From assembly GCA_965197475.1 (NCBI GenBank), contig CBDANF010000003.1, forward strand, positions 2,048,001-2,112,000: a DNA stretch of 64,000 bases. The letters are read 5' to 3'. Every line of letters begins with the position of its first letter. Position 1 is the first letter of the stretch. Shown here in pieces: positions 16,066 through 37,765 of this stretch. The stretch is from Candidatus Poribacteria bacterium (GTDB lineage Bacteria; Poribacteria; WGA-4E; WGA-3G). Position numbers and translations under genes: made by a program. The notes below the pieces were generated by a model, which worked only from the letters and a program-made list of their open reading frames with translations, was not told where the DNA came from and did no database searches.

Positions 16066-16868
16066 AAATCCTGAATGTTTGATGTGTGCCCACCTTGTGG
16101 CAAGTTTGCCTTCAGAATGTTTGATGTGTGCCCACCTTGTGGCAAGTTTGCCTTCAGGTTGAACCGGGATAAACCCAAAACCGTTGCCTAATGCGTTAAT
16201 CTCATCTTCGTCTAAAGCACGGGAAAATATAGCGGCATCATCAATCGCGCCACCATAACCCTCTCCACCTTCACCGCCAAGACGATAAGTTTCATTTGCG
16301 CCACGGGTTTCTTGGAAATCTGTCTCGGCTACATTTTCACCGTTGGCATAAATTTTGAATTTCTTACCATCGCTTAAGACGGCTACATGTAACCACTCAT
16401 CCATTTCAACTACCCCTGCTCCGGTTTCACATAGTACCGTCCATCCAGCGACCTGTCCACGCCAAGACAATTTACCATCGTTTTTATTCACGAACAAGGA
16501 TTATGTCCAGCATCACCAGATAAACTCCGCCAAATTTGTTGCCATTCACCGCCTTCAAAGGTTGGATTAATCCAGACAGAAATTGTATATGGGTCCGTTT
16601 TGAAAAGATCACCATGCAGCGTATCGGATACCAGCATCTCAACGTGTGCACCTACATCAAGGTGAATTGCATCTCCAAATTTACCTTTATCCCATTTAGA
16701 ACCACCTTTAATCTCGCCATTGTTTTCATTTCCAGAAGAATCTTCTGAGTTACCGTCAAACGAATAGTATGCCACCAAAGTTGCATCTTCAGCGGTAATA
16801 CCTAAATTCACCCACACCAAGAGAAACGTAAATGACATAACAAATATCAATACTTTCATCGTAATCAC
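16054..16868 (-). pseudogene. secreted LamG/concanavalin-like domain protein, split by a 1-nt frameshift near 16500
   Basis: Signal peptide, LVAYYSFD...GKFGDAI, WLHVAV, IDDAAIFSRAL and C-terminal VQPEGKLATRWAHIK. One added base joins the two track ORFs; this may be an assembly indel. Confidence 0.8.
16073..16156. repeat. exact 42-bp tandem duplication encoding EGKLATRWAHIKHS twice
   Basis: GAATGTTTGATGTGTGCCCACCTTGTGGCAAGTTTGCCTTCA at 16073-16114 and 16115-16156. Confidence 0.95.
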
Positions 16869-29024: not shown

Positions 29025-29190
29025 AACGTCTGAAACGATAATATTAACATGGAGACCTTTTGTACATTATATTATGGTCTTATCGGTTTAGACATCAGGG
29101 TGTCCCAAACCTTTATTCAGCGTGTAGAAGGTCTACCGAAAAGGATAGGGAACCCGATGAAAAATACGATATGCTTTTGATGGCATATCA
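29025..29190 (+). ncRNA. structured leader RNA: two adjacent hairpins with a 13-bp loop-loop pseudoknot, plus a third hairpin
   Basis: P1 29028-29046/29075-29093; P2 29094-29114/29140-29158; loop pairing 29053-29065/29122-29134; P3 29168-29189. The G-U pairs favour the + strand. Confidence 0.6.
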
Positions 29191-29210
29191 CCTTATAGAA
29201 GAAGTATAAA

Positions 29211-30056
29211 ATGCAAAGATTGAAATCAATTGGCATTGCAGTGGCGATGTTGTGTTTGCTGTGCCTCATCGTGGGTGTCAATAGTAGTGATGCCGATATT
29301 GAGATTGTGGAACTAAGGTCTTATAATGACACCACCGTAGAATACGATTATGGAAGCACATATTTCACCTTTTATGTCCGAACAAATGAGCCTTATGGTG
29401 GTCTGCTCTGGTATGTTGATGGGGATTGGGAATGGGGCACTCTGGGTGATCGTAGTAGTCAGGATCATTATTTCGGACTTAACCTCCCCGGAAGCATTAA
29501 GGGAAACACTTATGAGATAGAAGTTTTTGCCGTTGGAATAGCTCCTAATGGTCATCTTGTCCTCCCAACAGATGACACAGATACGGCTACCTACGATTTC
29601 ACTGTGTTGAAACCGATAGTAATTAGCGGCTTCCAAACGCCTTCGTGGGAGAAACCAAGAGTCACCGGTGTCTTCGGATATAACGAACTTACCCGGCACT
29701 ATTTCGACGGAACGAATATCATCATGGAGGGATGGGTCTATGCTTATAACCAAACCGGTGAAGACTGTTCCGCCACTGCCTGGTTCCGGCATACTGGTCC
29801 CAACGGGTTCCAAGAGGAACATCCCGCACCGAGAGGTCTATTTGGCCCTAACCAGCCGAGCAGATCGTATGGTCCTTATAGGGCCAAACCGATGAGACTC
29901 AATTATTTCGTCGGCGGACCGATCGGAGAGAATAGACCGCATACGTTAAATGCGCATATCCATCTTCAAGTGACTGGTAACGGGGCGGTAGATGTCTGGC
30001 ACGGCATAAATGGTTTTGATACCACGTTTACGTCTGCAGACAATCCATCTCCATAA
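29211..30056 (+). CDS. secreted beta-rich hypothetical protein
   Basis: N-terminal signal peptide (...VNSSDA), 281-aa ORF, no family recognised. Confidence 0.75.
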   Translation: MQRLKSIGIAVAMLCLLCLIVGVNSSDADIEIVELRSYNDTTVEYDYGSTYFTFYVRTNEPYGGLLWYVDGDWEWGTLGDRSSQDHYFGLNLPGSIKGNTYEIEVFAVGIAPNGHLVLPTDDTDTATYDFTVLKPIVISGFQTPSWEKPRVTGVFGYNELTRHYFDGTNIIMEGWVYAYNQTGEDCSATAWFRHTGPNGFQEEHPAPRGLFGPNQPSRSYGPYRAKPMRLNYFVGGPIGENRPHTLNAHIHLQVTGNGAVDVWHGINGFDTTFTSADNPSP

Positions 30057-30068
30057 CCCATTGTAACG

Positions 30069-30089
30069 GCAGGGGACGCGGTCCCCTGC
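30069..30089 (+). repeat. intergenic hairpin, repeated at 31167-31193
   Basis: GCAGGGGAC-gcg-GTCCCCTGC; both copies begin GTAACGGCAGGG. Confidence 0.65.
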
Positions 30090-30112
30090 AACCTCTTTTA
30101 AGGAGGATCCTC

Positions 30113-31156
30113 ATGCGTGGACAAAAAATTGTTTCGCTCTGTCTGCTGCTCTTGCTTTTGTCAACCTCGGCACACGCCAAAATCGTTTTTAGTTCTGTAC
30201 GCAACGGTGTAAAGGGTGTCTACGTGATGGACGATGATGGTAGCAACCAGACACTCCTCACAGAAGATAAAGAGTTACAACCATACCCCAGTTGCTGGTC
30301 TCCTGATGGTAAATGGATTGCGTTTAAGAGACGTGTCCGTAGGCATAAAAGGCCTGCCATTTTCTTGATGAATGCGGACGGCACGAACATCCGGCAACTC
30401 ACAGAAGACGATGGGAGTGATATCGGTAGAGTCTCATTTTCACCGGACGGTAAATCTATCGTTTTTAATAGGATAGTTCGGATAGACAACAGGGAGAAAT
30501 ACAGTATCACCGTGCTGAATATTGAGACGGGGAAAATGAAAGAAATCGCGAATATCAATGTTAGCTTCTGCGATTGGTCTCCGGATGGCAAGCATATTAT
30601 CTTTTCAAAGCCGCTGGAGGTTGCAGGCGGTGGAAACACAATCTGGATTATGAGCGCAGATGGACATAACCCACGCCCACTTGTCCCGGTACCACTGGAC
30701 GGGGGAGGAGTTATTCACAGATGGAAACAGAGATGGTCACCAGATGGTAAAAAGATTGTGTTTGCACAACGTGAGTATGCCTGGGAGAAAATACCCGGTG
30801 GAGGGACCGCGCTGATCGACAAGGCACATCGGTATATGATTTGCGATCGCAACGGAGAGAACCTTAGACGGCTACAGGTACCGAAAGAGTGGCGACCGCT
30901 CGGCATCGACTGGATGGATGACGGTAAATCCGTTGTTTTCAGTGCGTACGTCGGTATCCCTTTGAACGAACCGATACTGCATGGTTTTGTGTTCCCACCT
31001 GCAAATATCTATAAGTATCATATCAAAACAGGCGAGATTACGCAGTTAACAGACCATCCGGGCACAGATGGGGTACTGGATTGGATAAGCGATGATGTGT
31101 TATCTGTGACACCACACGGCAAAAAAAAAGTAACGTGGGGCGCGCTGAAAAAATAA
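30113..31156 (+). CDS. secreted TolB-like (PD40 repeat) beta-propeller protein
   Basis: Signal peptide ending AHA, repeated WSPDGK, C-terminal VTPHGKKKVTWGALKK. Confidence 0.88.
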   Translation: MRGQKIVSLCLLLLLLSTSAHAKIVFSSVRNGVKGVYVMDDDGSNQTLLTEDKELQPYPSCWSPDGKWIAFKRRVRRHKRPAIFLMNADGTNIRQLTEDDGSDIGRVSFSPDGKSIVFNRIVRIDNREKYSITVLNIETGKMKEIANINVSFCDWSPDGKHIIFSKPLEVAGGGNTIWIMSADGHNPRPLVPVPLDGGGVIHRWKQRWSPDGKKIVFAQREYAWEKIPGGGTALIDKAHRYMICDRNGENLRRLQVPKEWRPLGIDWMDDGKSVVFSAYVGIPLNEPILHGFVFPPANIYKYHIKTGEITQLTDHPGTDGVLDWISDDVLSVTPHGKKKVTWGALKK

Positions 31157-31609: not shown

Positions 31610-32844
31610 ATGCGTCAAAAATTGAGGCAGATTATCTGTAAGAGTGTTTTTCTTCTGTGTGGCTTGATACCCTTGCTTGCCGGGGCAGAAGTTCAATATC
31701 TCGGACTTGTTCACGAACCCCACTTTTCACCTAACGGTAGACATAATGCTGTGATTGTGGAGGACAGGTATCCTGGAGGATCGGAATTCTCGCTCATGTT
31801 GTTGACAATGAGGAAAGATGGATTTACTCGGCTAAATTCATATTGTCTAACGCCACGGTATGATGAATTTGTGTTGACTCCCGAAAGAAATATTGCTTTT
31901 GTGGTATTTGACACGTCAAATCATTATAGGGTTCAAGTGTATAACCCAAAGGAAAGAAAGATGGTCCACACCTTAGAATATGAGAGGGTCAAGATAACAC
32001 AACCCCAATTTTCTAAAGACAGGCGCGCCTTCTGTTATTATAGTGACTTTGATGCACATCCCTTCGCTTCACTAAAACAAAAAATTGAAGGAAAACTAAG
32101 ACCTAACGGGTGGGTGATCTATAGTAGTGATAGTGAGCGTGGACTTGCTGTCGCAAAGGATGGCAATGTTGTTTTTTCAAAGGAAAAGAAGGATGCCTTT
32201 ACAGAATGGGCCCCATTGAGAGACCTAAAAAACTTCCACAGTTTTTTACACAACCGATGCCAAAAATCGCTTTAGACACACAAATACATTGGGCCGCTGA
32301 TTCTAAATATGTCTATGTTTTAGATGAAACCGGCATCTGGCGACTTGAACTCGGAATTATCTATTTTCCGCTGTGGACAAAGGTTGTGAATTCCAATACC
32401 ATCACTCGCTTTCAACTTCCAAGGACAGGAACATATTTGCTGTACGAAACGCTACCGGATACCAATTCAAAAGGAGATGATAACTTCCTTATCAAGTTGG
32501 ATGACTTCTCAAAAGGTGTGTATGATCTACCAGATCCGCACAAACTCACGCGTGATATTTGGTTCGTAGATACCCGAGCAATCAACGAAAAGGAAGAGAA
32601 CGAAAAGCCCACAGTTGCAGAAACGGAAGCCGCCCAAGGGCCGATCTGGTTACTTGACGCGACATCTATACTTTCACCTACAAAAATTGTGCGCGGTTGG
32701 GGCGCATCCTTTAATCCTATAAGTGATAAAGTTATCAGTTATAGTACCTTTGAAGGTAACTATCTATTAAATCTTGAGAAGCCACCAACGAATCCCATGA
32801 TCCCAATAGGCAATGTCCTGTCAACACAGTGGGCATACGATTAG
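31610..32844 (+). pseudogene. secreted TolB-like protein split by a frameshift in the A-run at 32227-32232
   Basis: Signal peptide, PHFSPNG, PQFSKD and IHWAADS motifs. One extra A fuses the ORFs as ...LRDLKKLPQFF... Confidence 0.65.
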
Positions 32845-36008: not shown

Positions 36009-36461
36009 ATGACAAATTTAGTGACACGCAGACCAATAGGAAACTTATTCAACCTCCACAACGAAATGGGGCGGATTTTCGGAGACTTTTTCACCTCTCA
36101 CACTGGTGGAGCGGATGAGCACAACACCTCTTGGGTTCCGACAGTAGACATCTCTGAAACGGAAAACGGTTTTGAAATTTACGCCGAACTCCCAGGGGTA
36201 AAAGAAAACGATGTCCAAGTCTCAGTAACTGAAAACCTGCTCACAATCAAAGGTGAAAAGCAGCAGGAAGAGAAGACAGATAACAAAAATTTCCATCGTG
36301 TAGAAACGCGGTACGGGAGTTTTCACAGAAGTTTTACGCTACCACAGCAAGTTAAAGCAGATGATATCAAAGCTGGATTCAGAGACGGTGTTTTGACTCT
36401 CAACATTCCAAAGGCAGAAGAGGCAAAACCGACTGAAATCCCGATCACAGTAAATTCTTAA
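36009..36461 (+). CDS. small heat-shock protein Hsp20 (intact)
   Basis: WVPTVDISET, AELPGV, YGSFHRSFTLP, DGVLTLNIPK and IxI motif EIPI. Confidence 0.93.
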   Translation: MTNLVTRRPIGNLFNLHNEMGRIFGDFFTSHTGGADEHNTSWVPTVDISETENGFEIYAELPGVKENDVQVSVTENLLTIKGEKQQEEKTDNKNFHRVETRYGSFHRSFTLPQQVKADDIKAGFRDGVLTLNIPKAEEAKPTEIPITVNS

Positions 36462-36472
36462 CCTCACAGAAC

Positions 36473-36511
36473 GGGCATGCCTCATTTACCGAATAGTTTT
36501 GAGGCATGTCC
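36473..36511 (+). terminator. intercistronic hairpin
   Basis: GGGCATGCCTCA...TGAGGCATGTCC. Confidence 0.5.
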
Positions 36512-36555
36512 TATATGATACAAGCAATAAACTATAGCATATAAGGAGAAGAAAA

Positions 36556-36927
36556 ATGACCTATTTGGCCTTACGCAGACCTTCAGGCAACCCGTTCAGA
36601 TTTTACAACGCACCGTTCGCTCTACAGCGCGTATTTACTCCGGCGAAAGAAAACAAATGGATGCCCTCTACAGACATTTCTGAAACTGATGGCAGCTTTG
36701 AAGTTCGTGCTGAACTCCCCGGCGTTACAAAGGACGATGTCCAGATTTCTGTCAAAGATGGCCTTTTAACGATAAAAGGAGAAAAGCGACAAGAAAAAGT
36801 TGACGACATCAAAGCCGAATTCAACGATGGTGTCCTGACGTTGTCCATTCCAAAACCGGAAGAGGCAAAGCCGAAAGAAATCCCGATCAGTGTTGAATCG
36901 TCTGTGGATTCTCCACAAGAGAACTAA
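36556..36927 (+). CDS. Hsp20 paralog with a 28-aa in-frame internal deletion
   Basis: KGEKRQEK joins directly to VDDIKAEF; the segment containing YGSF.RSF.LP is missing relative to the first paralog. Confidence 0.85.
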   Translation: MTYLALRRPSGNPFRFYNAPFALQRVFTPAKENKWMPSTDISETDGSFEVRAELPGVTKDDVQISVKDGLLTIKGEKRQEKVDDIKAEFNDGVLTLSIPKPEEAKPKEIPISVESSVDSPQEN

Positions 36928-36941
36928 AACATTTCACAAAA

Positions 36942-36977
36942 AACAGGGTTGGCACAATTAATTGTGTCAACCTTGTT
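36942..36977. terminator. hairpin or terminator after the second Hsp20
   Basis: AACAGGGTTGGCACAAT-ta-ATTGTGTCAACCTTGTT. Confidence 0.55.
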
Positions 36978-37078
36978 GACGTTGCAATACTTTTGCCGAA
37001 CATTTCAAAGGTATAATGGTCAAAAACAGTGAAAGAATAAAATGATTAGATTACAAATTAGATAAAGGAGAATTTTTA

Positions 37079-37765
37079 ATGAGAAATTCACAACAACATT
37101 GCCCCAGAGGTGATTTCCGAGGGGCACGGAGAGAACACCCCAGACAGGGTGGAGGTGGTAGAAGGAAAAATTACCGTCGTTCGGAACATCCTGAAGGGGA
37201 GAGACAGGGACCACCACAAGCAAGAGGTCCTCGACGACAACACCGACCTGAAGCACGTGGAAATTCGGAACAACACCGACCAAGAGCCAGAAGAAATCGT
37301 CGTCGCGCACGACAAGAAAACTTCAGACCGCATCACCCAATGAGCGATTTTTTCCTTCATCACAATAGGAGGAGACATGTATTTGAAGGGAGATTTGCAT
37401 TTGGTGGGAGAAAAAACAGAAAAAGAAAATCTGGTTGGCATCCATCAATTGAATTTTCTGTTTTTGAAGATAGGTTTGAAGTAATAGTTGAACTCCCCGG
37501 CGTTTCCCAAGACAGTGTCAATGTCTCTGTAACCAATAAATTATTGATAGTAAAAGGGAAAAAGCAGCGGAAGCAAACGGACGAAAAGCATAAGGTACGC
37601 AGGTCTGAATTGCGATACGGTAGATTTAAACGTGTACTTCCACTTCCACCGAGTGCTAAAGCAGATGGAATAAAAGCCGAATTCAAGGATGGTGTTTTAA
37701 CAATAGTGATTCCGAAAAAGGAAGATGCCAAACCGACTGAGATTCCGATCAACGCTGACGTTTAA
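37079..37765 (+). CDS. Hsp20 paralog with an Arg-rich disordered N-terminus of about 120 aa
   Basis: RBS AAGGAG; C-terminal alpha-crystallin domain (VELPGV, RYGRFKRVLPLP, DGVLTIVIPK, EIPI). Confidence 0.85.
   Translation: MRNSQQHCPRGDFRGARREHPRQGGGGRRKNYRRSEHPEGERQGPPQARGPRRQHRPEARGNSEQHRPRARRNRRRARQENFRPHHPMSDFFLHHNRRRHVFEGRFAFGGRKNRKRKSGWHPSIEFSVFEDRFEVIVELPGVSQDSVNVSVTNKLLIVKGKKQRKQTDEKHKVRRSELRYGRFKRVLPLPPSAKADGIKAEFKDGVLTIVIPKKEDAKPTEIPINADV

Follow-up and report, generated by a model that had tools for sequence, protein, structure and literature searches.

The window, by which we mean the whole 64-kb stretch of Poribacteria DNA that was analysed, holds a promoter followed by three predicted hairpins (P1, P2 and P3), a Shine-Dalgarno-like tract and a cassette of two genes, the first for a secreted protein (ORF1) and the second for a PD40 beta-propeller protein (ORF2) (Table 1). 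The initial annotation had picked out this promoter, the three hairpins and a 13-bp complementarity between the loops of P1 and P2; all of them are present in the sequence, and to a greater degree than chance would give. Two more ORFs lie 3' of the PD40 gene at 31610-32844 (+; 221 and 212 aa), neither with a Pfam family and the first with a signal-peptide-like start. Elsewhere in the window a 42-nt unit is perfectly duplicated in tandem at 16073-16156 (family D2), and three copies of a 100-nt stretch stand within 36348-37751 at 72-76% identity and spacings of 442 and 862 nt (family D1); the latter repeats probably belong to three paralogous small genes.

Table 1. Features of the leader and its cassette, in window positions
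Feature	Position	Strand	Remarks
Sigma-70-type promoter	28990..29018	+	TTGACT 28990-28995, 17-nt spacer, TATAAT 29013-29018; 11 of 12 consensus positions
P1, long imperfect hairpin at the predicted 5' end	29028..29093	+	MFE fold; conserved AAAAC/GGUUU internal A.G mismatch
P1b, small apical hairpin within P1	29047..29063	+	ACAUGG-AGA-CCUUUUGU in the window; contains most of the 'P1 loop' 29053-29065
P2, irregular 65-nt hairpin	29094..29158	+	MFE fold; most conserved module, in 42 of 42 copies
P2 apical hairpin, CG-U-GUAGA-AGG-UCUAC-CG	29121..29138	+	MFE fold; contains the 'P2 loop' 29122-29134
P3, 8-bp hairpin	29168..29189	+	MFE fold; ends 21 nt before ATG 29211 and 7 nt before the Shine-Dalgarno-like tract
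Purine-rich ribosome-binding tract AGAAGAAG	29197..29204	+	Shine-Dalgarno-like; 6 nt before the ATG
ORF1, 281-aa secreted protein	29211..30056	+	signal peptide; no Pfam family; modelled as a tandem beta-sandwich
Terminator-like hairpin between ORF1 and the PD40 gene	30069..30089	+	spanned by one RNA-library contig (29770-30165)
ORF2, PD40 (TolB-like) beta-propeller protein	30113..31156	+	signal peptide; PF07676, E 1.7e-18; conserved second gene of the cassette

The TTGACT-N17-TATAAT promoter is as it had been described, and the transcript of the window is predicted to start at about 29025-29026, that is, 2-3 nt 5' of P1, because the -10 hexamer stands at a fixed distance upstream. Among the 35 copies of the leader that bear P1 (copies are described below), the best-scoring -10 hexamer ends 1 nt before the start of our model in 34 (all but L077), and in 28 copies the hexamer reads exactly TATAAT; for L080 and L044 the distance was scored as 2 nt, not 1 nt. 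Across copies the leader sits between the -10 hexamer and the ORF, the promoter spacer is conserved along with it, and AGGAG or GGAGG is found at the ribosome-binding position in copies other than that of the window.

Folding of 29025-29215 yields P1, P2 and P3 together at -48.6 kcal/mol (z = -3.19 against dinucleotide shuffles, 1 of 200 shuffles being as stable), and the reverse strand of the leader folds more weakly (-45.1 kcal/mol, z = -2.82). The P1 arms (29028-29041 and 29080-29093) face each other over 14 positions, namely 12 Watson-Crick pairs, one G-U pair and one A.G mismatch. At the tip of P1 the small hairpin P1b has the family consensus AGAUGG-GGCC-CCUUCU; its pair 32-49 is GC in 17 copies, AU in 7 and CG in one, which is the window copy. 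The apex of P2 follows the consensus CGGUGGA-AGG-UCUACCG, and all seven of its pairs form in 25 of 35 copies. It had been suggested that the P2 loop could fold on itself, and the self-folded form is indeed the MFE prediction for the window; the third hairpin, which had been placed about 20 nt ahead of the ATG, corresponds to P3. The 5' arm and loop of P3 (29170-29178) are complementary over 9 bp to the ribosome-binding region (29200-29208) in the window copy only, inspection of the other copies by eye having revealed no counterpart.

Evidence for transcription comes from RNA-library contigs of one study, on which the leader continues into ORF1. Of the words sampled from 28500-30100, 53-70% are present in four sponge metatranscriptome runs of that study. 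A 746-nt contig equals 29048-29793 with no differences, running from inside P1 into ORF1, and a second contig (29113-29655) likewise joins the leader to ORF1; 5' ends, strand, level and the continuity of a single molecule cannot be read from such contigs, and DNA carry-over is possible. Contigs of the four runs leave 28859-29047 uncovered and two contigs begin at 29048; the gap would agree with a start near 29025 but is given no weight as evidence, since contigs do not reveal ends. Just upstream of the leader lies a 95-aa RRM-domain gene (28509-28796, +; PF00076, E 1.2e-24), followed by a strong terminator-like hairpin at 28851-28881, and word depths in the RNA libraries are 27-46 for the contigs of this gene and 2-9 for the leader and ORF1. 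The RRM gene was rejected as a dedicated partner of the leader, which it adjoins only in the window and in the orthologous, decayed locus L022. Two copies without P1, namely L002 (1470-1500; contig C3 of the window's own genome, about 3389550) and L014, carry TGGCAC-N5-TTGC at 11-12 nt before P2, an element that resembles the -24/-12 consensus of sigma-54; the window's genome has an rpoN-like gene. RNA-library contigs include this element in L002, and a transcript start there is unsupported.

The cassette behind the leader is variable in its first gene. The predicted structure of ORF1 has a mean pLDDT of 67.3, a moderate confidence, and a comparison with the PDB ranks chains of RbmA, a matrix protein of Vibrio cholerae, first (E 1e-6, TM 0.25-0.33); we regard this modelled likeness as a weak lead and nothing more. 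Four sets without any BLAST link to one another can be told apart among the first genes: an A/B group of 22 members, a group of 8, a group of 2 and a singleton. All first genes begin with a signal-peptide-like sequence; a Pfam scan of five first-gene proteins returned no family for any. In 30 of 42 loci the leader is followed by a PD40-like match, and for most of the remaining 12 the stretch fetched was too short to include a second gene. Conservation at the nucleotide level reaches into the signal-peptide codons, over the first ~40 nt of the ORFs. Within these codons the window has a hairpin-like palindrome at 29231-29252 (+; core AUUGC-AGUG-GCGAU), which recurs in many ORF1 paralogues as ATCGC-NNNN-GCGAT, even where the middle residue differs, and which may reflect codon bias or form part of the regulatory region.

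To establish the distribution of the leader we used two models, R1, which covers P2 and P3 and was built from 29 sequences, and R2, which is full-length. Within the window's genus, R1 matched 16 of 40 genomes. At the level of the family the count was 17 of 112, the extra one being the sole genome of genus g6, with three copies; in a sample of the phylum it matched 16 of 151 genomes, from one of 22 genera. Each carrying genome has 1-5 matches. R2 gave 44 matches in the loci, and 42 were accepted as copies once a 26-bit match in L037 and a reverse-strand 24-bit match in L038 had been discarded; homologues upstream of paralogous secreted-protein genes, which the initial annotation had proposed to look for, do exist. 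In the window's own genome a second copy precedes a paralogous secreted-protein gene with its PD40 gene, and there is also a weaker third copy. This third copy (L077 1001-1168, -; C2:568512-568679) has a promoter, P1, P2 and a P3-like hairpin, and is followed by small ORFs only, with no typical ORF1 or PD40 gene. Two full leader cassettes stand in tandem, 2.3 kb apart, in genome G034 (L013 and L029; C1:5073528 and C1:5075867), one of them with an early stop in its ORF1. In genome G038, L022 (1090-1560) appears as a decayed orthologue of the window leader, whose promoter and P1 5' arm are intact, with ~320 nt inserted inside P1, a degenerate P2, ORF1 lost and the PD40 gene still in place.

Searches further afield came back empty. 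A Poribacteria MAG with a relative of ORF1 at 59% identity (L085) has no leader by R2, and BLAST matches of 23-25 nt in genera g4 and g5 were not confirmed by R1 (0 of 2 and 0 of 65 genomes). A metagenome scan with two conserved blocks of P2 collected 75 stretches, among which R1 recognised no real homologue; it gave three identical 24.8-bit matches (GC 0.62, E 0.008).

Comparison of the copies supports the predicted fold. For pairing counts we used alignment A4, the 35 P1-bearing copies aligned to R2; standard pairs fill 87.7% of its cells against 78.7% in column shuffles, and none of 500 shuffles reaches the observed value, with the reservation that an alignment made in this way leans towards the model. 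When the partners are slid by 1-3 columns, the paired cells drop to 40-51%. Changes on both sides were found in 31 of the 53 model pairs of A4: 13 of 18 in the P1 stem (helix 1; 87% of cells paired), 7 of 8 in P3 (helix 7; 93.9%), and 3, 3 and 2 of 7 pairs each in P2 helices 4-6 (89-93%, with 90.8% in the apical hairpin, helix 6). P1b (helix 2) has both-side changes in 3 of 5 pairs, and a conserved U.U keeps the share of paired cells in it down to 66%. A mutual-information scan across the whole alignment placed 12 model pairs within its top 45. Covariation thus bears out P1 and P3 strongly and P2 in part, whereas the proposed loop-loop helix fails this check. G-U cells outnumber C-A cells by 175 to 69, which indicates an RNA on the + strand, and in this respect what the wobble pairs of the window had suggested holds across the copies. 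Judged by these comparisons, the element is a conserved structured 5' leader with covariation, on the sense strand and lying between promoter and start codon.

The modules of the leader differ in how firmly they are kept. P1 is missing from 7 of 42 copies (L002, L014, L017, L062, L073, L081 and L082). The mean pairwise identity of P2 is 0.82 against 0.64 for the P1 stems (27 core copies), and its conservation extends to unpaired positions such as GAAC and AA. The G-C stems of P2 hardly vary, and some of the conservation of P2 may be due to how little copies from a single genus have diverged.

No catalogued RNA family accounts for the leader. Rfam 15 (4227 models) gave no match at the gathering score anywhere in the 64-kb window. 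With E up to 10, five matches were obtained in 28800-29400, none of them on the + strand of 29025-29190; two lie upstream, and one is snoZ5, at 29174-29289 of the minus strand (19.6 bits, where the gathering score is 60). Ten other copies, searched with E up to 1, gave only tRNAs and chance matches in L079. The initial annotation had advised comparison with a Poribacteria-1 RNA motif, said to be an Rfam entry. The two would be alike in being structured RNA candidates of the same phylum; however, no Rfam match with E up to 10 falls on the + strand of the leader, hence none by that name, and RF03071, which is the Sodium family, does not match either. If Poribacteria-1 is among the 4227 models, the leader is not a member of it. 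A literature search on 'Poribacteria-1' found no paper, and supplements, which such a search does not cover, may name the motif; a search on Poribacteria with riboswitch or propeller found nothing relevant. The leader is best described as a real RNA motif with solid covariation and a narrow distribution that is absent from Rfam and of a kind already known, the structured 5' leader.

What might such a leader do? The inference of a riboswitch-like cis element stands in so far as there is a structured leader RNA of a secreted-protein gene, but no expression platform was found. P3 has no U-run behind it in most copies, which leaves a terminator at P3 unsupported, and the 18 copies computed show no conserved pairing partner of the ribosome-binding site, which leaves its sequestration unsupported as well. 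In these 18 copies, which do not include the window (judged from its MFE fold), the probability that the ribosome-binding site is unpaired ranges from 0.22 to 0.91 and is at least 0.5 in 11. Two other known modes of control were rejected. GGA motifs belong to the consensus for CsrA, and GGA occurs in the P2 apex and ACAAGGAU in the P2 3' strand; PF02599, which does match control genomes, finds nothing in the window's genome (92.7% complete), and CsrA/RsmA control was set aside. For a leader-peptide attenuator no conserved upstream ORF was found: the AUG inside P1b (29050 in the window) is present in 19 of 35 copies, and its frames differ because of indels.

Our best explanation, to which as a whole we give a probability of about 0.5, is that the leader of ~165 nt (P1, P2 and P3) represents an uncatalogued family, confined to one Poribacteria genus and one sister genus, that would act in cis on a cassette of a variable secreted protein and a PD40 protein, with P2 serving for recognition and P1 being optional; the mechanism is inferred. 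The leader would act after initiation, on the translation or the mRNA life of ORF1. The module recognised by a trans factor, be it a protein or a small ligand, would be P2, because it is never lost and is the best conserved part. P1 may be a dispensable hairpin at the 5' terminus with a protective or tuning effect on the mRNA, and P3 a structural spacer that keeps the ribosome-binding site open.

Alternatively, the leader may be constitutive and sense nothing, P1 stabilising the mRNA while P2 and P3 shape efficient ribosome entry for highly expressed secreted proteins. The ompA leader is an example of a 5'-terminal stabiliser hairpin in bacterial mRNA, and the likeness to it is one of layout, with the 5' end being predicted: a stem-loop few nucleotides from that end, an mRNA for an exported protein, and further hairpins before the ribosome-binding site. 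P1 does begin 2-3 nt after the predicted start in the P1-bearing copies, with the -10 spacing fixed in 34 of 35, the promoters are near consensus, and the ribosome-binding site is mostly open, with neither a conserved sequestering partner nor an expression platform. The present leader differs in that its 5' hairpin, P1, is optional and its strongly conserved part, P2, is internal. P1 is dispensable and P2 is never lost, and the sequence of P2, unpaired GAAC and AA included, is conserved beyond what a generic stabiliser would need. We therefore hold this alternative to be improbable, although it deserves to be kept in mind.

A bolder version of the recognition idea is that P2 is the aptamer of a new, narrow riboswitch class for a Poribacteria-specific regulon of secreted matrix-like proteins and PD40 proteins, whose ligand might be a signalling nucleotide or a metabolite from the host, and that the P1 tip and the P2 apex, complementary over 6 bp, form a ligand-sensitive alternative pairing, extended to 13 bp in the window. 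We consider this speculative and distinctly unlikely. c-di-GMP-I (GEMM) riboswitches occur upstream of adhesin and matrix genes, and the leader resembles them as a multi-copy element with side-by-side hairpins ahead of secreted proteins, here perhaps matrix-like. On the other hand it has no Rfam match, and P2 stands without P1 in 7 copies, which implies that there is no obligate two-hairpin aptamer.

The reading given in the initial annotation, a riboswitch-like switch that controls expression through a kissing contact of the P1 and P2 loops, fares slightly worse still. In the window the complementarity is real: 29053-29065 pairs antiparallel with 29122-29134 at 13 of 13 positions, three of them G-U, the longest such run in the leader. 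Shuffling the two hairpin interiors 5000 times produced a run of at least 13 in 9 cases, and 4 of 300 shuffled leaders had one. A crude energy balance for the window copy (opening +9.6, duplex -13.2 kcal/mol) nets -3.6 kcal/mol before any loop-loop penalty. The 13 bp are not a feature of the family, however. In the register of the window, column pairs 46-135, 49-132, 54-130 and 55-129 fail to form in 28-31 of 35 copies, the main run of 11 pairs has 69% of its cells paired and the outer run of two pairs 19%. What the copies have in common is a 6-bp core, CCUUCU/GGAAGG. It is fully complementary in 22 of 35 copies; of the others, 7 match at five positions, 2 at four and 4 at no more than two. 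Paired cells make up ~90% of the core, yet a single cell with both sides changed is its only covariation, and no pair between P1 tip and P2 apex falls within the top 45 of the mutual-information scan. Four consensus-like copies net +0.2 to +4.1 kcal/mol for the duplex in the same crude balance, with the penalty for loop-loop geometry not counted.

The two partners also change independently. P2 apical-loop variants AAG (L020, L059), UGG (L036) and AGA (L040) have no answer in P1, and both P1-less copies of genome G006 have an AUG variant of this loop. Conversely, the common C-to-U change at column 49 of the P1 tract is compensated inside P1b, by G to A at column 32. Four copies (L078, L083, L079 and L084) have a different P2 apex without GGAAGG and keep CCUU(U)CU in P1, L044 is the reverse case, in which GGAAGG is retained and the P1 tract is not, and 4 of the 7 copies without P1 retain [G/A]GAAGG in the P2 apex. 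Both 'loops' are parts of small hairpins, P1b and the P2 apex, each of which is itself conserved. An obligate two-hairpin kissing switch was rejected on these grounds: its partners dissociate, with 7 of 42 copies lacking P1 and 4 of 35 lacking GGAAGG, and the loop-loop pairs are not kept. The guanidine-II (mini-ykkC) riboswitch, in which two short hairpins with ACGR tetraloops form kissing loops, is similar in its adjacent hairpins within a 5' leader and a possible loop-loop pairing upstream of the ribosome-binding site; the present leader differs in its 65-nt hairpins, its other loops, its unconserved loop-loop pairing and its lack of a match in Rfam. Taken together, a kissing switch appears very unlikely, and the 13-bp duplex is, on the evidence of the aligned copies, specific to the window copy, a possible alternative conformer there and not a property of the family. 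The case illustrates that when one sequence shows a long loop-loop complementarity of a statistically unusual kind, this can be peculiar to a lineage and not shared by the family.

Least credible of all, and to our mind barely tenable, is that the 5' end of the cassette simply spreads as an upstream homology module by duplication and gene conversion, the RNA fold having no role of its own: the conserved promoter spacer and first ~40 nt of the ORFs, the several copies per genome, the tandem cassettes of G034 and the patchy occurrence within the genus (16 of 40 genomes) agree with it, but paralogues in the same genome carry P1 stems that differ by compensating changes, the three versions of G062 being shared with orthologues in other genomes, covariation in P1 and P3 is far above the shuffled and slid controls, and homogenisation would erase compensating changes rather than preserve pairing. 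Borrelia lipoprotein families carry upstream homology boxes, and they are alike in joining promoter, leader and signal peptide into a module, in serving unrelated secreted-protein genes and in having several copies per genome; in the present case the transcribed part has compensatory base-pair changes, which points to selection on the RNA fold. Duplication or gene conversion of the 5' module as a whole may nevertheless account for part of the likeness among copies.

To conclude, a cis-acting leader in which P2 is the recognition module and P1 an option would have a bearing on the biology of the Poribacteria, which are uncultivated sponge symbionts, since it touches the regulation of host-facing secreted proteins. 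The leader ties together orphan families of secreted proteins that BLAST does not link, and in so doing marks a regulon and offers a handle for its study.
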